Assembly (NCBI GenBank): GCA_050261115.1
Contig: JBLNCY010000052.1
Location: 1 to 54,137 of the forward strand
From: Methanocella sp.
GTDB taxonomy: Archaea > Thermoproteota > Bathyarchaeia > Bathyarchaeales > Bathycorpusculaceae
Direction of reading: 5' to 3'
Length of the DNA: 54,137 nt
Below are positions 31,521 to 41,786 of this stretch, in pieces (position 1 is the first letter of the stretch; each line of letters starts with the position of its first letter). Both the position numbers and the translations under genes were made by a program. The notes below the pieces were generated by a model. That model had not been told where the DNA came from. It saw only the letters and a list, made by a program, of their open reading frames with translations, and made no database searches.

Positions 31521-33143
31521 TTAGGGTTCTTTTTTGCCGCTTAGTACCCGCTCAAGCGCCGCTAACACGTTATCTTTGCCCATAGCTAACACGTAGGGGC
31601 CGAGCCTTGGGCCTTGAGGTGCACCAAGAAGGATTTGGTAGAATATTTTGAAGAGTGCGGCTGGTTTTAGGCCGTTGTCTTTGGCGGAGGTGAAGATGGC
31701 GTTTTGGATGGCGTCGGCGTCGGTTTCGGTTTTTAGTTTCTCGATGAATTCAGCGATTGCTTTGCGTTCGGTGACTGAGAGTTCAATTGTGGATTCTTTG
31801 ATTTCCTCGAAATCCTGGGTCCAGTTTAGGGCGTACTGTATGCGCTGCTGCAAGCCTTCGTCGAGTGCTTGACCTTTTTGGAGGTAGCCGTAGGTTTGCA
31901 GTTTTTCAGCGACGTAGTCGTTGATGGAGTCTTTGGGCGCCATCTTGACTAGGAAAGCCATAAGGTTGTAGGGCACATGGATGCCAGGTTTTGTGGGCGG
32001 CTTCATGACATAGCAGTACCGGAAGAGGCCCTTGAGACGTATGGCTTCTTTTTCGCCAACCTGCTTTTTCCCAAAGTAAACGTCTTCTAGGTAGTCCAAC
32101 TCGTTCATGTAGGAGGGTATATCGGAGACATCCAGCGACCGCGTTCCCACAAAACGCTTAAGCATCAACAGCAACAGCGACTGAGGGGACCCATATCGGA
32201 ACCAGACTTGTGGCGTAAACACGTTACCCGCCGACTTGCTGATTTTTTTCCCGCCCTTATCAAGAAACATCTCATACATGGCATGGCTAGGCGGCTCAAA
32301 CTCCAGCACTTCCCGGCAGATGCGGTCGTTTATGCGAACAGAGTCCGCGATGTCTTTGCCGTAGGCTTCAAACCGTATGTCGAGTGCACGCCATCGCGCG
32401 GCAAATTCGCTTTTCCAGGTAAGTTTGCCTTGTCCGCTTTTGATGTCTACTTCGCCTTCATGTCCGCAGCCAGGGATGAGTTTGCCGCGGATTTCCAGCC
32501 CCTCGCATTTGTAGGTGACTTTGTCGGTTTTTGGGTCAAATTTGTAGGCGCGGGTGGTATAGAGGTGGCCGCATTTCTCGCAGACCGCAAAGAAGGGCAG
32601 GACTTCGCTGTAGGTTTCCTGTCCAACTTCTTCTTTGATGATTTCACCGACTTTTTTGGCATTAGTTAAGATTGTGCGGATTTCGTTTAGGAGGAGGCCT
32701 TTGTCGTAGGCGTCCTTGGCGCTATAGTACTTGTATTCGATGCCGCACTTATCGAGCGCTTCTAGGAGGAGACTGCTCATGTGTTTGCCGTAGCTTTCAT
32801 GGCAGCCGAAGGGGTCGGGGATGGTGGAAACGGAGTAGCCAAGGTATTTTTCGAGTTTCTGCGCCATATCTGAAGGTAGCCCAGCGGGGACTTTTCGGAG
32901 GCCGTCTTTGTCGTCGCAGAAGGCTACAAGCTCCGAGTTGCAATCCATCTCTCTGAGTGCCAAGGTGACTGCATAGCTGCGGCTGGCATCACCCAAGCTT
33001 CCAATATGCGGGAAACCGCTGGCGCCCAAACCCATTTCTGTTCGGATTTTACTTGTGTCCCGCTTTAGTGACTGTTCACGTTCGATGACTTTCTTGGCCA
33101 TCATGTCATACCATGTGCCGTGACCGATGATTTCTTCAGACAT
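31521..33143 (-). CDS. lysS: Class I lysyl-tRNA synthetase
   Basis: GASGFPHIGS, DDKDGLRKVP, IPDPFG, EAYGKD, KISKSAGN, GPRLG. Confidence 0.96.
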   Translation of the reverse strand: MSEEIIGHGTWYDMMAKKVIEREQSLKRDTSKIRTEMGLGASGFPHIGSLGDASRSYAVTLALREMDCNSELVAFCDDKDGLRKVPAGLPSDMAQKLEKYLGYSVSTIPDPFGCHESYGKHMSSLLLEALDKCGIEYKYYSAKDAYDKGLLLNEIRTILTNAKKVGEIIKEEVGQETYSEVLPFFAVCEKCGHLYTTRAYKFDPKTDKVTYKCEGLEIRGKLIPGCGHEGEVDIKSGQGKLTWKSEFAARWRALDIRFEAYGKDIADSVRINDRICREVLEFEPPSHAMYEMFLDKGGKKISKSAGNVFTPQVWFRYGSPQSLLLLMLKRFVGTRSLDVSDIPSYMNELDYLEDVYFGKKQVGEKEAIRLKGLFRYCYVMKPPTKPGIHVPYNLMAFLVKMAPKDSINDYVAEKLQTYGYLQKGQALDEGLQQRIQYALNWTQDFEEIKESTIELSVTERKAIAEFIEKLKTETDADAIQNAIFTSAKDNGLKPAALFKIFYQILLGAPQGPRLGPYVLAMGKDNVLAALERVLSGKKEP

Positions 33144-33247
33144 CAACTTTTCCTTCTGCACAACTTCTACTGCGGAGCTATAGAAAAATGTTTAGAACCC
33201 CACAAGGCGATTGGGGTCACCTCGCATGCTATTGAGGAAGCAGCAGT

Positions 33248-35596
33248 TTAAGGCGTCTTTTGCTTGAATAGCCAGATTTTCCTTGACATCCAATACAGCA
33301 AGCTACCTATAGCAAAGGCAAACGCAGGGTAGACGGGGAGGATGTAGTAGGGCATCTTTGTCTGCGCAACCGTGAACACAGCAAAAACCACGGCGACCCA
33401 GGTGACGATTAAGGCGTCGCTTTTGGAACGTTTAAGGGCCCAATAAGCTGATAAGCCCAGGCCAAAGGGCAAAAGCGCCATCCATAGCGGGTTCTCGTTT
33501 GTGGCTAAGTAGTTGAAGTAGAACAGGATGTCTCCTTGGTGGCCCTCGATTGGATTGACTACCCGCTCAAAGGTGGAGTAGGTGAAATAGTAGCCCCAAA
33601 ACTCCGAGCCAAAGTTAACATGCATCACAATTAGGTAGGGAGCAACCACCACAAGCGCCATTGTCAAAAACAGCAGAAACCGCCTGGTGAAGAGGGGTTT
33701 AAAACTTTTCGCTGTCAGTACGAGATATAAGCCTGCTATGGCGGGGATCAGTAGCGCTTCGGTCTGTTTAGTCATCAAAGCTAAACCAAAGAATACCCCG
33801 CCTAAACCAGCATATGCCAGGACGTTTTTGGCTTGGGGGGCGGATTTTTTGCTCAGCAACAGGAAGTAGAGGCTAGCCAGCATAAAGAATAGCAGCGGCA
33901 CATCGGTCATGTAGCGAGTTGCAAACGTGACAAACATCACGCAGGTTGCCAAAACCACAACCGATAGCACCCCCACAGCGCGATTGTAGAGCAGTTTTCC
34001 CAGATGATACATCATAGCAAGGGATAATCCACCAAAGATTACGCTCCAGAAGCGAGCGGCAAAGTTGGTTGCGCCAAAAACTTGGTAAGCAACCGACACC
34101 AGCCACATGGTTAACGGCGGTTTACCAATCCACAGTGAGACCACGCCAAAGTTCCAGGGAGTCAGGTAGTCGCCTGTTTTTAGCATGTGAAATGACCATT
34201 GGGCGTAGGTTTGCTCATCAGCAGGCCACATCGGAGCATTATCCAAGTTGACAAACAGCAGCGCCGAGCAAGCCAGAATTACTATGACAACTAGCAGGTC
34301 GAGGTGCGCCTTGTACCATGGCTGCTTTGGGGTTTGGACGTTTAGGGGTTTTTCTTTGCGTTTATGCAAAACGTAAGCCGCCGGCACAACAGAGGCAAAC
34401 ACCGCAAAAAGAGCCACGTCTAAGATGATGGTGGATAGCGCCCAAGAATCCAGGGCTAGCAGCGGGGGGTTGTCGGCGGTGGCGTTGAGGAGAGTTAGCG
34501 CGTAGACTTTGCGGTCGCTGGAGCCAATGTAGAGGGTGTTGTTGGCAATCGAGGGCGAGGAGTTCACGGCTTCTTCGGTAGCAAAGCTCCATTTGACGGC
34601 CCCTGTGTAGGCGTCAAGACAGTAGACATTGCAGTCCTGGGAGCCAACATAGAGGTTGCCATCTGCAACGGCGGGTGAAGAGCAAATCCAAAAGCCCGTG
34701 GCAGTGCACCAGACTAGACTGCCAGCGATGGCATCGAGGCAGTATACGTTGTTGTCTTCCGAAGCCACATAGACATAGCCATAAGCGGCGGCTGGTGAGG
34801 AAACGATGAAGCCATGGGTGACATGCCGCCAGTTTTCTGTGCCAGTGTGGGCGTTGAAGCTGTAGAGGGCGCCGTCGGTTGAGCCAATGTACACCGAGCC
34901 GTTGTAGGTGGCGGGAGAGTTGCTGCCGCTTGATGTGAAAGCATGCCAGACCAGCTCTAGGGTGCTTGCGTTTAGGGCGTAGAGGTAGTATTCTGAGCTA
35001 AAATACAGCAATCCTTCGGCGTAGGCTGGTGCGGAGTTGATGGTGCCGACCGCTTGGAAAAAAGACAGCACCGTTCCAGAGGAAGCTTCTAAGCAGTAGA
35101 GGCGGGCGTTTGAAGAACCCACATAAATGTAGTCGCCAAGAACCAGGGGCGATGACCAGAGGGCGCCATTAAGGTTAGTTTCCCAGACAAGTCTGCCAGT
35201 ATCAGCCTCTATGCATGAGAAGTTGCCTTTGCTTGAGCTTACATAGAGATGCCCGTCGCTTACGGCAGGCGTTGAGAAACTGCCACCGACATCGCCGAAG
35301 TATTGCCACATTATGTTTCCGCTTGTCGCATTTAGGCAGTAGAGGTATCCGTCTCCCCCACCCACATATACGTAGTCCCCTGTAACTATTGGAGAGGACC
35401 ACACAGACGCGCCTGTCTGGAAGGTCCACAAGAGCTGGGCAGAATCGGTTGCATCGCCGATGTGGGTGGAGCCTGAACGTGCGATGTCATGTTGGAACAT
35501 CGGCCAGTCATTTGGGGCGGCTTGGACTAAACTGCAGGTCTGCGATATAGTAAGCAGCAGGAGTAGGATTATTAGCAAGCTATTGCGCCGTCTCAT
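33248..35596 (-). CDS. Fusion: secreted PQQ-like (BamB-type) beta-propeller plus ArnT/GT39-type (GT-C) glycosyltransferase
   Basis: Signal peptide, WPMFQHD, about 8 SSP...YVGS.D..YCL.A..G...W repeats; then multi-TM with DEQTYA, GDYLTP, KPPL, ARF, D.PL, KMPYYILP. Confidence 0.87.
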   Translation of the reverse strand: MRRRNSLLIILLLLLTISQTCSLVQAAPNDWPMFQHDIARSGSTHIGDATDSAQLLWTFQTGASVWSSPIVTGDYVYVGGGDGYLYCLNATSGNIMWQYFGDVGGSFSTPAVSDGHLYVSSSKGNFSCIEADTGRLVWETNLNGALWSSPLVLGDYIYVGSSNARLYCLEASSGTVLSFFQAVGTINSAPAYAEGLLYFSSEYYLYALNASTLELVWHAFTSSGSNSPATYNGSVYIGSTDGALYSFNAHTGTENWRHVTHGFIVSSPAAAYGYVYVASEDNNVYCLDAIAGSLVWCTATGFWICSSPAVADGNLYVGSQDCNVYCLDAYTGAVKWSFATEEAVNSSPSIANNTLYIGSSDRKVYALTLLNATADNPPLLALDSWALSTIILDVALFAVFASVVPAAYVLHKRKEKPLNVQTPKQPWYKAHLDLLVVIVILACSALLFVNLDNAPMWPADEQTYAQWSFHMLKTGDYLTPWNFGVVSLWIGKPPLTMWLVSVAYQVFGATNFAARFWSVIFGGLSLAMMYHLGKLLYNRAVGVLSVVVLATCVMFVTFATRYMTDVPLLFFMLASLYFLLLSKKSAPQAKNVLAYAGLGGVFFGLALMTKQTEALLIPAIAGLYLVLTAKSFKPLFTRRFLLFLTMALVVVAPYLIVMHVNFGSEFWGYYFTYSTFERVVNPIEGHQGDILFYFNYLATNENPLWMALLPFGLGLSAYWALKRSKSDALIVTWVAVVFAVFTVAQTKMPYYILPVYPAFAFAIGSLLYWMSRKIWLFKQKTP

Positions 35597-35681
35597 CTGG
35601 TACCCGTACCATAAGGGATAGCCTAATGCTAATTTAAATTATGGGAACCAACAGACAGAAAACAAAAAGAGAAAGAAAGGG

Positions 35682-36023
35682 CTATTTGCGCCTCAGCGCA
35701 GCGGTGATTGCTAAACCCGCAACAACCAATAGCACCACTATCAGCGAGTAGAGCCAGTTGATGCTAAATAGCATCCAAGCGCCACCCACCGCAATTGCAA
35801 CTAACCCAAGCGCTACAGTACTAAAGGGGCTGCGTTCATACTTTACTGGTTTGCCCATTCTTATGGCGCCCAACACGAGGAACCATAATCCATTGAGTAA
35901 GATTACTACCGGCACAATCAATGGCCAATCAATCAACCCTGCAACATAGAGCAATACTGCAACGACTATGGTGATGAAGAAGACGCCGACGGTTAGCAGC
36001 GTCCGACTGTTTCCATCACTCAT
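35682..36023 (-). CDS. Small 4-TM membrane protein
   Basis: Four hydrophobic segments; GGAGA SD; 14 nt downstream of the SPFH gene. Confidence 0.8.
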   Translation of the reverse strand: MSDGNSRTLLTVGVFFITIVVAVLLYVAGLIDWPLIVPVVILLNGLWFLVLGAIRMGKPVKYERSPFSTVALGLVAIAVGGAWMLFSINWLYSLIVVLLVVAGLAITAALRRK

Positions 36024-36037
36024 GGCGTCTGTCTCCC

Positions 36038-37018
36038 CTATTGGATTTTTTGTCCACATTCAGGGCAGAATTTGCTGTTGGCAGGGATAGATTTGCCGCA
36101 GTTGGGACAGGTCATTGTGTTCTGCGAGGGGGGGGTTAGGTTGGTTCCGCAGTTGGGGCAGAATTTGCTGGTGGCAGGTACTTTTTCGCCGCATTTGGGG
36201 CAGATGACTAGCGCTGCTGCGGGTGCTGCTTGGGGTGCGCCTTGCTGATTCATAATCTGTGGAATTAGGACCATGCCTGCGCCGAGGGCGCCTGAGCCGC
36301 CTCCGCCTTGACCCAGGCTCTCTGCTGCACTTTTCACCGTCTCCATGCGAAGTACGTCGCCTGCGGGGGTGTTACCGGTTTTTAGCCAGAAGAGGCGTTC
36401 ACGGTACTCGGGGGTGGTATCGATGCCTTCGAATCTCAGGTCGGTTAATTCGATACCGACACGTTTGAAGTAGTCGATTAGGGTGTTTTTGACGATGATG
36501 CTGGTCTCGTTTAGGCGTGTGAATACTGTTACTAGGTCGTAGTGGCTGAGTTCGTTAATAATTTTCTCGTTGAGGAAACCGCGGAGGAAATCGTTTACGC
36601 CCTGGGTGGTGAAGACTTTCTGTCCACCAACGACTTCGTTGACAAACAATGAAGCGTCAGCAATTTTGAACCAGAATTGCCCATAAACCTGCAAGGGGGC
36701 TAGCTCGGTGGTTTGTGCACGGGTACCCCATTTGCCTGCAAAGATTTTTGTGCTGATAAAGAGCACTGTTGCAGTGAAGGGTTTGTTGCTTCCAAAACCG
36801 GCCAACCGCGTCAGCAAGCCCGTTAGCAGAGGCAGGTTTAGGGTGGTTAGGGTGTGGCGTCCGGGGCCGAAAACGTCGTAAGCTTTGCCGTCTCGGAAGA
36901 ACACGGCCATCTCGTATTCTTTAACAATTAGTTGTGCGCCCCAGGTTATGTTGTTTTCTGGGTGACGATAAACTATGTCTTCAGGACCCACGTTCGTCCA
37001 TTCAAGTACTTGTGGCAT
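36038..37018 (-). CDS. SPFH/band-7 domain protein (YdjI-like) with C-terminal double Zn ribbons
   Basis: IVYRHP..NI..GAQLIVKEYEMAVFFRDGK..D.FGPGRHTL.T.NLP, KWGT; four CPxCG motifs. Confidence 0.88.
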   Translation of the reverse strand: MPQVLEWTNVGPEDIVYRHPENNITWGAQLIVKEYEMAVFFRDGKAYDVFGPGRHTLTTLNLPLLTGLLTRLAGFGSNKPFTATVLFISTKIFAGKWGTRAQTTELAPLQVYGQFWFKIADASLFVNEVVGGQKVFTTQGVNDFLRGFLNEKIINELSHYDLVTVFTRLNETSIIVKNTLIDYFKRVGIELTDLRFEGIDTTPEYRERLFWLKTGNTPAGDVLRMETVKSAAESLGQGGGGSGALGAGMVLIPQIMNQQGAPQAAPAAALVICPKCGEKVPATSKFCPNCGTNLTPPSQNTMTCPNCGKSIPANSKFCPECGQKIQ

Positions 37019-37557
37019 TATGCATTCACTCCCATGATGACTTCTTGGCGTTTATCAAACGCGTCTTCTAGCATGTCGAATTTGTCTGTGACACCTTGAA
37101 TTTTATCCTTAAGGCCCATGTAGTCGCCGCTTGCCAGTTGGGCCTTGAATGCCTCAATAGAGTCTGTTAAGGCGGTGACTTGCTCGATGAGTTGGTTATC
37201 GTAGGTGATCATGCGGTCAAGGTTCTCTTCTTTGATTTTGACGGCGTCAAAGAAGCCTGAGTAACCATAGGATGCGTGATTAACTTTTGAGCTGATGCGA
37301 TCAATTTTTGCGACAAGGCGGTCTATGTCGGGCAACACGTCTAAGTATCGTTTGTCAGCTAATTTCTGAGAGATGAGCCTAACGTTATCTTTACCTTTGG
37401 ATAGTTTGAGGTAGAGATGATTACGGAGTAGCTTGTCGGATTCACGGCGCAACTCTTTTTCTTTGTAACCGCGAAAACCGGGCAGCGCAGCGGCTATGCG
37501 CTCAGAAAGCCTCATTTGGCTTTTCGCTTGGGCATAAACATCTTTATTCTCACTCAT
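37018..37557 (-). CDS. Conserved-looking all-helical hypothetical protein
   Basis: LPGFRGYKEKELRRESDK and ASYGYSGFFDAVKI motifs; stop overlaps the SPFH start. Confidence 0.75.
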   Translation of the reverse strand: MSENKDVYAQAKSQMRLSERIAAALPGFRGYKEKELRRESDKLLRNHLYLKLSKGKDNVRLISQKLADKRYLDVLPDIDRLVAKIDRISSKVNHASYGYSGFFDAVKIKEENLDRMITYDNQLIEQVTALTDSIEAFKAQLASGDYMGLKDKIQGVTDKFDMLEDAFDKRQEVIMGVNA

Positions 37558-37615
37558 CTTGGATTCCTCGACTTCGCAATCCGTTATTAAAAAGACGCTT
37601 GCTATTAAATATTGG

Positions 37616-38359
37616 CTAGAATTTGTTGCTGGGTATGTCACCCTTAAGCGTCATGCCTTTAACGCCGTCAATTATCATCTGGTAGCTTTTACCCTTATAC
37701 TCATAGCGTATAAACCATACGGGCGCATGCAAATACAACATCTGCTGAGGCTCAACCGCGGTTGTAGCTTCAACAACCCGGTCAACGTCAGACTGGAGCA
37801 AAAAACGATGATGAGAATCTATCTGCTGACGCGCCAGCTCTACAGCCTGCTCTTTCTCAACTTCGCTGTTAAGAAGCTTCGCAAAACTCTCTATCTTGCG
37901 AAAATCATAGGGGATCTTGCCCTCCAAAGGCACATCATAGGCTTTCGTGGGGAAGTCACTAGCTTGCCTTGCTAAGACCAGCCAGTTGTATTTCTTTTTG
38001 ATTTCGCCTTCCTTGACTATAGGGGGTGAGATGCGCTCAAAAATCCCCTTATAGCGTGTGGAAGCCTCACAGTTGACAACCCAAAAAGGAAGATACATCA
38101 GGGTTTTCTCGGTTATCTTGCTTTTCTTGGCCAAGTCGGAGGGCTTCATGAAGCCGCTTCGCATCCAGTCCCTGACGCGGTTCTCCATCGCTTCGGGGCT
38201 AAAGCTGTTTAGCAGAAGAGAATGTTGAAAGGAGAAGGCTTTTCCTGTTTGGATGACAGTTGTGAAGCCACAGTACTTGCAGGTAGCCACGATTTCCCCA
38301 GGTTTGAACTCCACGGGGGCACCGCAATGCGAGCACTTGATGTTTTCTGCAACTGCCAT
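37616..38359 (-). CDS. Zn-ribbon protein, YdjG-like
   Basis: CSHCGAPVEF.PG...ATCKYCG, W...GFMKPSD, YLPFW, APVWFIRYEYKGK.Y...IDG..G. Confidence 0.75.
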   Translation of the reverse strand: MAVAENIKCSHCGAPVEFKPGEIVATCKYCGFTTVIQTGKAFSFQHSLLLNSFSPEAMENRVRDWMRSGFMKPSDLAKKSKITEKTLMYLPFWVVNCEASTRYKGIFERISPPIVKEGEIKKKYNWLVLARQASDFPTKAYDVPLEGKIPYDFRKIESFAKLLNSEVEKEQAVELARQQIDSHHRFLLQSDVDRVVEATTAVEPQQMLYLHAPVWFIRYEYKGKSYQMIIDGVKGMTLKGDIPSNKF

Positions 38360-38366
38360 ACTTAGT

Positions 38367-39752
38367 TTATTCCTTTAGGAGTTTTTCTCTCTTTAGGATT
38401 TCCCGAGCAACTATAACGCCGCTAGCAGACGCCTGAATAAGGCCACGAGTGACACCTGCACCATCACCTATGGTGAACATGTTATTGATTTTGGTTTCCA
38501 GCGCCGTGTTCAGCTGCAGATGGCTACTGTAGAATTTCACCTCAACACCATACAGCAAAGTTTCAGGTGAAGCAACGCCCGGCGCGATTTTGTCGAGGGC
38601 TTCTAGCATTTCTCGTATGTCGGTTAGGTAGCGATAGGGTAGCACGAAGCTGAGGTCACCGGGTGTAGCGTTCTTTAGCGAGGGGACCAGGACGCTATGG
38701 GCTATTCGCTCAGGTGTACTACGCCGACCATGCATCAAGTCGCCTAGGCGTTGGACCATGACTCCGCCGCTAAGCAGGTTACTTAGGCGCGCGATGTATT
38801 TTCCGTATGCGATTGGCTCTTTGAATGGCTCGGTAAATTGTGTACTGACTAGTATGGCGAAATTGGTGTTGAGGGTCTTGGTTTCTGCGTGGCTGCCACC
38901 GTTAACGGTTAAGACGCCGTCGTAGGATTCGGTGGTGACTTCGCCGTGGGGTGAAACACAAAACGTCCGAACTTGGTCGTCGAATGATCGTGAGAAATAG
39001 ATTAGTTTGGGCTCGTAGAGAACTTTGGTGAGTTTCTCGGTGACCGCCGCAAGCAGTTCAACGCGGACGCCGATGTCAACGGGGTTGTTGACCGTTTTTA
39101 AGCCGCGAATCTGCGCCTCGGTTTGGAGCCATTCTGCGCCGCCTCTGCCAGGGGCGATGATGACATATTTGGCCATGATCTTTTCTCCGGCGACGGTTTC
39201 TACGCCCTGGATGGTTTGGTTGTTGATGATTAGGCCTTTGACTTCGGTTTTGGGCATGAACGTGATTTTGCTGTCTAGGTAGTGGCGCATTTCTTTTAGG
39301 ACTTCAAGGCATCGGTCGGTACCCATGTGACGGACTTCTTGCTTGATTAGTTTGAGACCGACTAGGGAGGCTTGGCGAGCGATTTCGTCGATTTCTTCGT
39401 TGCTTCCGCCAAAAACTTCTTTGCTGGCGCCAAAACGGATGTAGATGTCGTCGCAGTATTTGACGAGGCTTTCTAATTCATTGGTGGAGACGTACTGGTT
39501 TAGCCAGCCGCCTACTTCGGTTGATAGAGTGAGTTTGCCGTCGCTGTAAGCGCCTGCTCCACCCCAGCCGTTGAGTACGTTGCATGGTTCGCAATGTACG
39601 CAGTCAAAGCCTCGTTGGGAGGGGCATTTGCGTTTGTTTATGTCTTCGCCTCGGTCGATGACGAGAACGTTTAGGTTGGATTTTTCAGTTAGTTCTAGTG
39701 CTGAGAAGATGCCTGCGGGGCCTGCGCCCACGATGATTACGTCATATTTCAA
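38367..39752 (-). CDS. NAD(P)/FAD-dependent oxidoreductase with N-terminal Cys cluster
   Basis: GAGPAG, GWGGAGAYSDGKL, RTFC, GDGAGVTRG; CP......CVHCEPC. Confidence 0.88.
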   Translation of the reverse strand: MKYDVIIVGAGPAGIFSALELTEKSNLNVLVIDRGEDINKRKCPSQRGFDCVHCEPCNVLNGWGGAGAYSDGKLTLSTEVGGWLNQYVSTNELESLVKYCDDIYIRFGASKEVFGGSNEEIDEIARQASLVGLKLIKQEVRHMGTDRCLEVLKEMRHYLDSKITFMPKTEVKGLIINNQTIQGVETVAGEKIMAKYVIIAPGRGGAEWLQTEAQIRGLKTVNNPVDIGVRVELLAAVTEKLTKVLYEPKLIYFSRSFDDQVRTFCVSPHGEVTTESYDGVLTVNGGSHAETKTLNTNFAILVSTQFTEPFKEPIAYGKYIARLSNLLSGGVMVQRLGDLMHGRRSTPERIAHSVLVPSLKNATPGDLSFVLPYRYLTDIREMLEALDKIAPGVASPETLLYGVEVKFYSSHLQLNTALETKINNMFTIGDGAGVTRGLIQASASGVIVAREILKREKLLKE

Positions 39753-39843
39753 AGGATAACGCTCCCTCTGGAACCCAGAAGTAATTGCAACAGGTAGGAT
39801 ATATTTGTTAGTGCCCGAATGCTTGGATGAGGCAGGTTGAACA

Positions 39844-39866
39844 TAGATATGTTTGAGATATATCTA
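39844..39866. promoter_or_regulatory. Candidate PadR operator TAGATAT-N9-ATATCTA (overlaps palindrome AGATATATCT)
   Basis: Perfect 7-bp inverted repeat in the divergent intergenic region upstream of padR. Confidence 0.5.
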
Positions 39867-39904
39867 AATAGCATTTAATGCATATCCATCTCAGCTGATT
39901 AAGG

Positions 39905-40360
39905 ATGCCAAAAGAAACCCAAACCGAAGGCCTAAACGAACTCCTAAGCGACTTCAGCCGCTTCTATATAGTCACCATACTCTATGAAGGCCCCCAACAC
40001 GGCTACAGCATCATGAGCCAATTCAGAAAACGCATCAAAAAAGAAATCAGCCCAAGCCTCGTCTACCCCTTCCTTGAGCAGCTAGAAGACAAAGGCTACG
40101 TTAATCACACACTCCAACCCATCGGCGACAAAGTAAAAAAAGTCTTCACCCTAACAGATGAAGGCCGGGAACTCTGCAGCTGCCTCTTTAAACGCTTTGC
40201 CAGCCTTGTCTCCATTGCCATTGAACCCAGCCTATCAGTCTGCGCCCACTGCGGCTGCAAAGTCTACGAAGGAACCTACAAAGAAGTCATCGATGGCAAA
40301 GAAATGGCGTTTTGCTGCATGCACTGCGCAGCATCATACAAGCAAAACAAATGCCCCTAA
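39905..40360 (+). CDS. PadR-family regulator with C-terminal TRASH-like metal-binding domain
   Basis: GPQHGYSI, SPSLVYPFL..LE..G, KVFTLTDEG; CAHCGC...FCCMHC. Confidence 0.88.
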   Translation: MPKETQTEGLNELLSDFSRFYIVTILYEGPQHGYSIMSQFRKRIKKEISPSLVYPFLEQLEDKGYVNHTLQPIGDKVKKVFTLTDEGRELCSCLFKRFASLVSIAIEPSLSVCAHCGCKVYEGTYKEVIDGKEMAFCCMHCAASYKQNKCP

Positions 40361-40539
40361 CGCCTCTGCTCGATAATTCGGCTCAGGCTTTTTCAGCTAA
40401 CTATTTGAAAAACAGGAAAAGTCGCTGAGGACTATAGATAAAACATGTATACCCCATTAGAGCTAGCTTCAAAAATGTTAGACATGGATGGCACAGATAT
40501 TCAAGGAAAGAAAGTAGAAGTGGTCTGATATACTCAGAA

Positions 40540-40818
40540 TTAGTCTTTTATGGCTTCTATGAAGCTCATAACGTTCCAGAGCTTAACCCGCGTGTAAGGC
40601 GGCATGTTGGGGTCCTGCAGAATCTCATCCAGCAAGGCAACAGCATTAGAAGCTTTTACGGCAGCGGTATATTCAGTGCTCTGTAACGCGTTCATGGCAT
40701 CTTTTGCGGATCGGCGAATGTTGCGGGGTGTCGTGCTATCTTCTGAAACCTCGCTAAGCACCTGTAACGCTTGCTTAATCTTAGCTTCATACTCTTCAGT
40801 TTTCTTTTTCCGAACCAT
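40540..40818 (-). CDS. UPF0147 family protein
   Basis: DSTTPRNIRR...DPNMPPYTR. Confidence 0.88.
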   Translation of the reverse strand: MVRKKKTEEYEAKIKQALQVLSEVSEDSTTPRNIRRSAKDAMNALQSTEYTAAVKASNAVALLDEILQDPNMPPYTRVKLWNVMSFIEAIKD

Positions 40819-40893
40819 GATTAGTTCCCCTGCACTGCAAAATGCAGTAGTCAAGTTATATATTTATTGATATGTATTTACTTTGGGGTCCAT

Positions 40894-41268
40894 ATGCAAC
40901 AAGACAAGGAAAGCATCAAACGAATGGCTGAACTGCTACGACAAGGCGCCACCCTAACTGATCGCTCGTGCCCAAACTGCAATTCGCCGCTCTTCCGCCT
41001 ACGAGACGCCACGTTATGGTGTGCAAAGGACGAGAAAAAGGTCATTGTAGTAAAAGAAGGCCAAGAGATACCCCAAGAAGCCCAACCGCAGGCGCCTAAG
41101 GCATCAAACGCAGCCTACGACAAACTAGAAGCAACCCTTATGGCAAAAATCGCTCACCTCGAAGCAAAAATCGAAAAAACCGAGGATGTAGATGAACTCC
41201 AAAAATTAACCGTGGCCCTAAGCGAGTTGCTAAACAGTGTGGATAAAATTAAACGTATGAAGGCTTGA
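40894..41268 (+). CDS. UPF0148 / autoantigen-p27-like Zn-finger protein
   Basis: MAELLRQGATL...CPNCNSPLF...WC; coiled-coil C-terminus; divergent from UPF0147. Confidence 0.85.
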   Translation: MQQDKESIKRMAELLRQGATLTDRSCPNCNSPLFRLRDATLWCAKDEKKVIVVKEGQEIPQEAQPQAPKASNAAYDKLEATLMAKIAHLEAKIEKTEDVDELQKLTVALSELLNSVDKIKRMKA

Positions 41269-41786
41269 ATCCCCGCTTGCCTCTTGGAGTCTACACCGGT
41301 TTTCCCGAAAACATTCACTACTTCATAGAGTACCAAGTGTTTTCCTCTACCCGTCAGCTTCAGCAAAAGCTCCTCAAATTCCTAGGCGAGATTAATCGCA
41401 AGGAGATGGTTTTTGAGCAAATATCCATTCCCACCATACCAGGTGGCGTTGTAATTTTTGAATACGGGTTAGCAGAGGATGCGGGCTTTAATTATCTTAG
41501 CGAGGAAGAAGTTAAGCGAGCGCTTGGGTTGGTGGAGAATGGACGTGTGGGGAGGCTGGATTTCTTCTGTTCTATCCGTTACTATAAGGATACAGGGGAT
41601 AAGAGGGTGGCGCTGAAATTTGATTACTATATGTTGCGCGCCGTATTCAGGAAGGGAGAAGTTGAGGTGCGTGTTTTTCATGAGCGGGGGCCGCGTTATT
41701 TGTCTCCTGAAGATTTGGTCGGGTTTATAGTTGACAACCTTAACCGTGAGTCACAGAAAACGATTCTGAGAGAAATAAACGCTTAA
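41265..41786 (+). CDS. Hypothetical protein
   Basis: 173-aa ORF; TTG start overlaps the upstream stop. Confidence 0.7.
   Translation: MNPRLPLGVYTGFPENIHYFIEYQVFSSTRQLQQKLLKFLGEINRKEMVFEQISIPTIPGGVVIFEYGLAEDAGFNYLSEEEVKRALGLVENGRVGRLDFFCSIRYYKDTGDKRVALKFDYYMLRAVFRKGEVEVRVFHERGPRYLSPEDLVGFIVDNLNRESQKTILREINA

Follow-up and report, generated by a model that had tools for sequence, protein, structure and literature searches.

In Bacillus subtilis, the operon pspA-ydjGHI, later renamed pspA-samGHI, couples an SPFH protein to PspA (accessible parts of PMC8581546, PMC13713150 and PMC11237479). As far as the first two of these texts go, the membrane proteins YdjG and YdjH recruit the SPFH protein YdjI, and YdjI is needed for PspA foci. 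According to the part seen of PMC11237479, YdjG is built from two zinc ribbons, a YpeB-related domain and a transmembrane (TM) segment, and YdjH is a TPM-domain protein. In archaea, an SPFH protein with a coiled coil and a zinc ribbon belongs to the Methanosarcina-type adaptin/ESCRT loci (PMC11188069, in part). We analyzed a gene array of a Bathyarchaeia genome (Methanocella sp., assembly GCA_050261115.1), carried by the first 54,137 nucleotides (nt) of contig JBLNCY010000052.1; this whole stretch of DNA is called the window below. The array encodes, in this order, a flavin adenine dinucleotide (FAD) oxidoreductase, a zinc-ribbon protein (ZNR), a helical protein (HEL), an SPFH protein and a small membrane protein (TM4), and it faces the divergent gene of a PadR regulator with a TRASH-like tail. 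We regard it as probable that this locus is a PspA-independent, YdjI/YdjG-type SPFH membrane-scaffold module, in which HEL is the partner of the SPFH protein and the FAD enzyme and PadR are add-ons.

Reading the sequence directly, we found that 7 nt separate FAD from ZNR, 58 nt ZNR from HEL, and 14 nt SPFH from TM4, while HEL and SPFH overlap by one base (TAATG) and are translationally coupled. The five co-oriented genes with these spacings, opposite the PadR gene, are thus present as an earlier sequence-only reading of this DNA, the first-pass annotation, had described them. Conservation of the gene order was followed in three samples: 18 stretches taken from relatives; the best 80 loci of a contig scan with a HEL profile (13-row alignment), all of Bathyarchaeia type, of which only those with enough flanking DNA were judged; and 201 genomes drawn evenly across the host phylum. 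In the first sample, ZNR-HEL-SPFH-TM4 recurs in several families of the order, so that the neighbourhood conservation on which the first-pass annotation had staked its reading was found for these four genes, and FAD and PadR occur in closer relatives only. In the second sample, SPFH starts at most 60 nt past HEL in all 76 judged loci, and the most distant loci (HEL identity below 48%) retain HEL-SPFH alone.

The same pairing was seen across the phylum. HEL was found in 107 of the 201 genomes, the SPFH family Band_7_1 in 117, and both in 102; the 15 genomes with SPFH only show mostly weak partial matches. For 86 of the 112 HEL matches an SPFH gene lies within 300 nt downstream on the same strand, for 9 more at 300-3000 nt downstream, and for 7 nearby in another arrangement. 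No SPFH gene was found on the contigs of the 10 others, several of which are situated at a contig end. The HEL-SPFH dyad is clearly the conserved unit, kinship of the sampled genomes notwithstanding, and the core module consists of ZNR, HEL, SPFH and TM4 in that order. PspA (PF04012) was found neither in the operon nor elsewhere in the genome of origin (2.15 Mb, 95% complete), in agreement with the absence noted by the first-pass annotation, and it was detected in only 2 of the 201 phylum genomes.

We assign the SPFH protein to the YdjI type; it has a Band_7_1 domain (PF13421, 108.6 bits against a cut-off of 24, E 4e-31) and, past a low-complexity linker, DZR and Zn_Ribbon_1 matches at residues 271-324. 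These correspond to the double zinc ribbon that had been proposed, which is C-terminal, and its eight cysteines are invariant across 33 sequences. PF13421 matches were also obtained in the control genomes of B. subtilis and Sulfolobus acidocaldarius; the search of the PDB by sequence returned no match at E<=0.01. A relative was found on the Enterococcus gallinarum plasmid NZ_CP116511.1 (L120), where an SPFH gene (Band_7_1 and DZR), a gene for a zinc-ribbon protein with a TFIIB-type ribbon, and a TPM gene stand in a row. This trio is the Ydj parts list minus PspA. The profile of our SPFH protein matches its SPFH protein, ribbons included (hhalign 98.6%). A hydropathy scan gave no TM segment in FAD, ZNR, HEL, SPFH or PadR, and hydrophobic stretches in TM4 alone, so the SPFH protein is predicted to be soluble.

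The resemblance of ZNR to YdjG was evaluated with a profile of 28 sequences. It aligned over 231 columns with the zinc-ribbon protein encoded between the SPFH and TPM genes of Enterococcus (hhalign 97.4%, E 1.5e-11), and over 239 columns with a two-ribbon TM protein encoded next to an SPFH gene in Paracoccus (98.7%, E 1.5e-16). The latter belongs to a plasmid locus (L119) with genes for TelA, a DUF2927 protein, an SPFH protein and the zinc-ribbon protein, whose single TM segment lies at residues 373-400. ZNR itself has one N-terminal CxxC...CxxC ribbon (C9, C12, C27, C30), to which Pfam ribbon families match weakly. Because of these profile matches, the single ribbon and the missing TM segment, ZNR reads as a YdjG-type protein without the first ribbon and the membrane anchor. 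Judged from its sequence, it is a true relative of YdjG-type proteins in a one-ribbon, soluble form; of the earlier proposal of a YdjG-like protein the homology stood, and the likeness in ribbon number and anchor did not. In the ESM Atlas, ZNR matches Bathyarchaeota clusters, followed by matches below 0.9 that serve as leads only, and the PDB sequence search gave chance-level matches only.

No Pfam family matches HEL or any of 87 diverse relatives. HEL does match LIMLP_15305 (NF047596), a Leptospira-named NCBIfam family: the match covers positions 38-173 of 175 with E 2e-17 and 63.4 bits against a cut-off of 210. Since it is significant and its score lies under the cut-off, HEL is a relative and not an equivalog member of this family. 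A literature search under the name LIMLP_15305 yielded one paper, with the name as a table entry. Clustering at 90% gives a HEL family of 3603 proteins, and 1189 clusters of 50% identity match at E<=1e-3. The named members come from both archaea and bacteria (Bathyarchaeia, Nitrososphaeria/Aigarchaeota, Armatimonadota, Eremiobacterota). Two motifs, IPGFxGYxxKExRRExDKLLR and YGYxGFFDAVK, are nearly invariant. The predicted structure is all-helical, as expected from the first-pass annotation, and forms a four-helix bundle (predicted local distance difference test, pLDDT, 87; predicted template modelling score, pTM, 0.78). Rare fusions of HEL were noticed, one with a C-terminal DUF4178 domain and one with an N-terminal zinc ribbon (P0238, P0154).

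In TM4, the hydrophobic stretches at residues 5-57, 66-92 and 84-113 are read as four TM helices, in line with the earlier description, and a KYERSxFST loop is conserved. The protein has no Pfam family, and no TPM_phosphatase (PF04536) match was found in any of the six proteins; the idea that TM4 replaces YdjH is therefore left with analogy. By profile comparison (99.2%), TM4 is related to the 4-TM protein encoded beside a second, type-B module subtype, so that on sequence grounds it is a separate family that accompanies both subtypes. It presumably acts as a membrane anchor. At distant loci, a protein of 115-129 amino acids that has a TM hairpin at its N-terminus and a zinc ribbon at its C-terminus is encoded after SPFH (L100:7555-7902) or after TM4 (L097:7866-8255).

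Taken by analogy with B. subtilis, where YdjI is anchored at the membrane by YdjG and YdjH and itself recruits and regulates partners, the probable PspA-independent module would work as follows. The SPFH protein would oligomerise under the membrane, TM4 would supply the membrane anchor that ZNR lacks, and the zinc-ribbon proteins would mediate the assembly. HEL would be an obligate binding partner, a regulator or a client of the SPFH protein, not a PspA/ESCRT-III homologue. The module would probably serve membrane maintenance or stress sensing.

A wider proposal can be built on the same data, and we put it forward as a possibility of which we are rather doubtful: HEL and a YdjI-type SPFH protein might form an ancient archaeal and bacterial membrane-maintenance unit free of PspA, with lineage-specific plug-ins. 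HEL would then be a dedicated gatekeeper or client of the SPFH cage, and the plug-ins would be YdjG-type proteins, proteins with a zinc ribbon, TM segment and Toastrack domain, arrestin-like zinc-ribbon proteins, or the 4-TM protein; the Fe-S/FAD oxidoreductase would have been added in this clade and would couple membrane surveillance to redox chemistry. The variants found in other lineages also count in favour of the scaffold module itself. In a divergent HEL clade, represented by 80 metagenome loci, SPFH is adjacent to HEL in 47 of the 65 judged, and 13 more have SPFH 0.8-2.3 kb downstream on the same strand; in 12 of these 13, a gene for a ZnR-TM-Toastrack (DUF4097) protein is inserted between the two. 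Toastrack is given as a partner domain of the Psp system in the accessible part of PMC11237479. The Toastrack-bearing loci (L126:3980-6913, L132-L134, L139, L141, L142, L144, L147, L149, L163, L197) encode a triple-ribbon SPFH protein, and L132 has two Toastrack copies. In a second Bathyarchaeia subtype, a long protein with an arrestin_N/Spo0M-like domain, a ribbon and a YdjG-type domain precedes a divergent HEL and a triple-ribbon SPFH (L024:3659-5059 (-), L025:4328-5611 (+), L023:8150-8749 (+)); L023 has in addition a separate arrestin_N and ribbon protein encoded divergently upstream. The recurring theme is HEL-SPFH together with interchangeable zinc-ribbon membrane or sensor proteins. The HEL profile gave no match at the bacterial plasmid loci L117-L119.

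One locus of the same genus was of another composition. At L026:2148-6114 (genome G024), FAD and ZNR are retained, and in place of HEL-SPFH-TM4 the opposite strand carries a type-B HEL-SPFH pair, ahead of which stands a gene for a 440-amino-acid ATP-cone protein with a C-terminal zinc ribbon. This arrangement looks like a module swap.

The first-pass annotation had HEL take the place of PspA, and a functional version of that idea would make HEL an effector of membrane remodelling or sealing, brought to damaged membrane by the SPFH scaffold. We consider this unlikely. HEL is all-helical and always adjoins the SPFH gene, PspA is rare in a phylum where HEL is common, and YdjI of B. subtilis is needed for PspA foci (PMC8581546, in part), all of which would fit a PspA stand-in. 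However, a HEL profile of the 87 sequences scored only 0.6% in hhalign against an archaeal PspA profile built from the two phylum genomes that have PspA, and neither HEL nor any of the 87 family members (87/87) matched the PspA_IM30 or Snf7 Pfam families. The profile search of the PDB listed no PspA, Vipp1 or ESCRT-III, and the PDB sequence search gave chance-level matches only. With the model, Foldseek returned nothing at E<=0.001 and generic helical bundles only; in a wide fold search (VIA-align) the best hit, a designed repeat protein with Z 12.2, lay within the background of the tool for helical proteins. In the model, moreover, the four helices pack into a compact bundle that has a conserved Gly/aromatic loop and is unlike a long hairpin, and four weak Snf7-like genes elsewhere in the genome could supply an ESCRT-III function. 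Since no Pfam, profile or fold match to PspA was obtained, HEL is not a detectable PspA relative, and its replacement of PspA is left with operon position. In the comparison with YdjG, YdjI and PspA/ESCRT-III by fold and profile, which the first-pass annotation had suggested, ZNR and SPFH thus found YdjG- and YdjI-type relatives, and HEL found no PspA or Snf7 relative.

We then come to the two genes at the PadR end. The FAD oxidoreductase belongs to the FAD-depend_C family (PF21688, 40.2 bits against a cut-off of 27), with further matches to GIDA and Pyr_redox_2, and resembles PDB entry 3nlc (3nlc_A, E 2.9e-24) of the uncharacterised VP0956 family. The Cys-cluster that had been noted in it is a Cx7CxxCxxC motif, and Cys43/51/54/57/148/265 are invariant in 49 of 49 homologues. 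PadR matches PF03551 (56.5 bits against a cut-off of 27, E 3e-15) and PadR chains of the PDB (E 5e-6). Its CxxCxC...CCxxC tail is present as described earlier: C113, H115, C116, C118, C137, C138, H140 and C141 are invariant in all 31 distinct homologues. The spacing C113-X2-C116-X20-C137-X3-C141 (31/31) resembles that of a TRASH domain, the consensus of which is CX2C-X19-22-CX3C; the scores of TRASH-type Pfam models, 20.1 bits for Ta0938 and 19.1 bits for TRASH_HVO_1752_C (E ~1e-3), are both under the cut-offs of 27. Archaeal copper regulators of the CopR/CopT type join a DNA-binding domain to a Cys-rich CX2C-X20-CX3C tail and bind a palindromic site at the TATA box. The regulator here is similar in joining a DNA-binding domain to a Cys-rich tail and in having a palindrome by a TATA-like box. 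It differs in that its DNA-binding domain is of the PadR and not the Lrp/HTH type, and in the TRASH scores below cut-off. A literature search found no paper that pairs 'TRASH domain' with 'PadR'.

The first-pass annotation had pointed to an inverted repeat, TAGATAT-N9-ATATCTA, between PadR and FAD. The repeat is there, its left arm is not conserved, and what is conserved instead is the compact palindrome AGATATATCT. Of 31 distinct regions upstream of PadR, 28 have its core GATATATC and 20 the full 10-mer; a CATTTAWW box, found upstream of PadR in 28 of the 31 sequences, follows the core at a near-constant offset in 25 of the 28 that have it. The words as such are not enriched in the genome of origin (2 copies of the 10-mer against 2.8 expected, not rarer than chance, and 20 copies of the core against about 40). 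The palindrome stays beside PadR where a region of 495-566 nt with another open reading frame (ORF) separates PadR from FAD (L013/L036, L030, L058, L060); in L013:9726-10237, L030:4304-4798, L058:3244-3808 and L060:3241-3806 this extra small ORF is on the FAD strand. On the other side, most of the listed PadR-FAD intergenic regions carry a variant of the A/T-rich FAD-side element, for example GCATATATTTGTTAGTG, in the corresponding position. Elsewhere in the genome (C31:64976-67800), its only HMA-domain P-type ATPase gene (CopA-like, two HMA domains) is followed by a gene for an 88-amino-acid TRASH/YHS-like protein. Upstream of the ATPase gene stands AATATATC, a look-alike of the palindrome with one mismatch, and some 12 nt on CATTTATA, a box of the CATTTAWW type. 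By our estimate, a near-match of this kind would turn up by chance in roughly one in five stretches of 500 nt, and the look-alike is therefore a lead only.

These data allow us to judge whether all five genes might form a single metal- or redox-controlled envelope-stress operon, governed by PadR-TRASH through the intergenic repeat and including the FAD enzyme as an integral redox part. The tight spacing of the genes and the invariant Cys clusters of FAD and PadR agree with such an operon. So does the position of FAD: of 68 judged loci, 45 have it immediately ahead of ZNR, and 4 more, which lack ZNR, have it immediately ahead of HEL. PadR has kept its divergent place opposite FAD in 28 of 65. 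The FAD/ZNR junction is also bridged by contigs from RNA libraries. Nevertheless, neither FAD nor PadR was found beside the module in the other families of the order (L018-L022, L029) or in the most distant loci, and the palindrome adjoins the TATA-like box of PadR itself and remains there despite the inserted ORF. The candidate promoter element on the FAD side has no copy of GATATATC, the left arm of the first-described repeat is not conserved, and the look-alike with its CATTTAWW box before the HMA P-type ATPase points to a copper regulon elsewhere. The single-operon arrangement is quite unlikely on this evidence. The FAD enzyme and PadR-TRASH, which the first-pass annotation had counted as core parts, are clade-level neighbours outside the widespread core. 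From its sequence, PadR-TRASH is most likely a metal sensor, probably for copper, that represses its own promoter via the GATATATC palindrome, separate from the SPFH array; the FAD gene is a clade-level first gene of the array and may be co-expressed with the module.

The RNA records were consulted for the junctions between the genes. Among the runs listed, 24 contain the stretch; they come from 18 studies and are mostly anaerobic-digester and sludge metatranscriptomes, 23 being recorded as RNA. In four RNA runs from four studies, contigs bridged the HEL/SPFH junction in 4 of 4 runs, FAD/ZNR in 3, and ZNR/HEL and SPFH/TM4 in 1 each, counts that are no proof of single transcripts and may include DNA carry-over. 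The listed contigs of the four runs leave 39763-39911 uncovered: one FAD contig runs as far as 39762 and then continues with adapter letters, and contigs of four studies start at 39912-39920. Because no DNA run stands alongside, these ends are not evidence of transcript ends.

Several points weigh against the PspA-independent scaffold module, in addition to the reserve just made on the RNA contigs. In the alignments with the bacterial proteins, the single ribbon of ZNR corresponds to their second and the first is lacking; a C-terminal TM anchor is also missing (maximum 19-residue hydropathy 0.67). In the wide fold search with the ZNR model (pLDDT 83), the top three hits were weak and all lay under the Z 8 caution line of the tool: the C-terminal domain of YpeB, aligned over 67 residues (Z 6.2), CD1622 (Z 5.9) and YpmB (Z 5.8). 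A YpeB-type fold is, for its part, the one published for YdjG. The homology to YdjG and YdjI was deduced through the Enterococcus and Paracoccus relatives and Pfam membership, not with the B. subtilis proteins. The core is not universal: TM4 follows SPFH in 54 of 70 judged loci, and ZNR stands directly before HEL in 45 of 71, with 7 more farther upstream; all these relatives are kin, hence the counts overstate independence. Finally, the 7-nt spacing of FAD and its persistence before HEL in the 4 loci without ZNR could mean that it is a functional part.

It is very improbable that the array is an anti-phage or other conflict system on an SPFH scaffold: a bacterial HEL-SPFH metagenome locus adjoins a phage-type lysozyme gene, one SPFH gene on a Butyrivibrio plasmid has restriction and toxin-antitoxin genes around it, and PspA has reportedly been linked to CBASS regulation in one paper, yet none of the six proteins has a match among the PADLOC families, the genome of origin contains a single copy of the module, and its housekeeping setting (LysRS, UPF0147, p27-like) with stable synteny across genera is unlike that of defence islands.

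The features of the locus are collected in Table 1.

Table 1. Genes and candidate control elements of the SPFH locus (positions are those of the window).
Feature	Position	Strand	Remarks
FAD oxidoreductase gene	38367-39752	(-)	461 amino acids, TTG start; first gene of the co-oriented array
ZNR (zinc-ribbon protein) gene	37616-38359	(-)	247 amino acids
HEL (helical protein) gene	37018-37557	(-)	179 amino acids counted from ATG
SPFH gene	36038-37018	(-)	326 amino acids
TM4 (four-TM protein) gene	35682-36023	(-)	113 amino acids counted from ATG
PadR regulator gene	39905-40360	(+)	151 amino acids; divergent from FAD
Candidate array promoter, A/T-rich GGATATATTTGTTAGTG on the plus strand	39797-39813	(-)	45-60 nt upstream of the FAD start; putative role
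Palindrome AGATATATCT, core GATATATC	39856-39865		candidate PadR operator, just upstream of the PadR TATA-like box
Inverted repeat TAGATAT-N9-ATATCTA	39844-39866		repeat of the first-pass annotation; present, once in the 2.15-Mb genome
TATA-like CATTTAAT	39872-39879	(+)	33 nt before the PadR start codon; putative promoter element
T-rich tract	35651-35680	(-)	candidate archaeal terminator, directly past the TM4 stop

The spacer between ZNR and HEL (37558-37615 (-)) contains the A/T-rich, TATA-like words AATATTTAATAG and CTTTTTAATAAC, and GAGG precedes the HEL start; an internal promoter for HEL-SPFH-TM4 is possible there, to judge by these words. An Rfam scan of 35000-41500 gave no family at gathering score. 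Downstream of TM4, 33248-35596 (-) encodes a 782-amino-acid protein that combines a PQQ-type beta-propeller with a signal/TM segment and with the membrane domain of a PMT_2 dolichyl-phosphate-mannose glycosyltransferase. Next comes a LysRS-like gene (31521-33161 (-)), in stable synteny with the module. Beyond PadR, the genes of UPF0147 and of a p27-like zinc-ribbon protein (40540-40854 (-) and 40867-41268 (+)) are likewise in stable synteny with it.

To our knowledge, SPFH proteins of the YdjI/SamI type have been studied in B. subtilis only, and they are read there as PspA adaptors. In the host phylum, the YdjI-type scaffold is common (117/201) and PspA is nearly never present (2/201), and the constant neighbour of the scaffold is a family without a Pfam entry. 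The link to PspA may therefore be a specialisation of the Firmicutes, in which case the scaffold has a general partner that is still unstudied. The locus adds a soluble, one-ribbon form of YdjG and two clade-level neighbours, among which PadR-TRASH and GATATATC constitute a candidate regulator-operator pair. The literature searched, supplements excluded, contained no description of the HEL-SPFH pairing and no characterised archaeal example of such a module, as the first-pass annotation had also supposed.

Compared with the described systems, the locus shares with the Methanosarcina-type loci an archaeal SPFH protein with a zinc ribbon, there in a membrane-remodelling context of Vps4, ESCRT and adaptin-like genes, none of which is present at this locus; HEL is not mentioned in the accessible part of PMC11188069. 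The Paracoccus cluster resembles it in the Band_7_1 SPFH gene that directly adjoins a YdjG-type gene, with the profile match to ZNR given above. There, however, the zinc-ribbon partner is a two-ribbon protein with a TM anchor, GYF_2 stands at the end of the SPFH protein where ours has zinc ribbons, TelA is present, and a profile search found no HEL. The Enterococcus trio is close in both its SPFH and its zinc-ribbon protein, as the two profile matches indicate, and unlike our locus it has a TPM protein of the YdjH type and an N-terminal TFIIB-type ribbon.

The likeness to the Bacillus operon, as far as the accessible texts describe it, lies in an SPFH protein that is soluble, belongs to Band_7_1 and has a low-complexity linker ahead of a C-terminal zinc ribbon, in a zinc-ribbon protein with a YdjG-type central domain, and in a small membrane protein encoded in the same operon. 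In contrast to Bacillus, PspA is absent here from operon and genome, a 4-TM protein of another family is found and no TPM-domain YdjH, the YdjG homologue is a one-ribbon protein that lacks a TM segment, the gene order is different, and HEL is an extra constant partner. The defining extra part of the module is thus a new helical partner rather than a PspA substitute.

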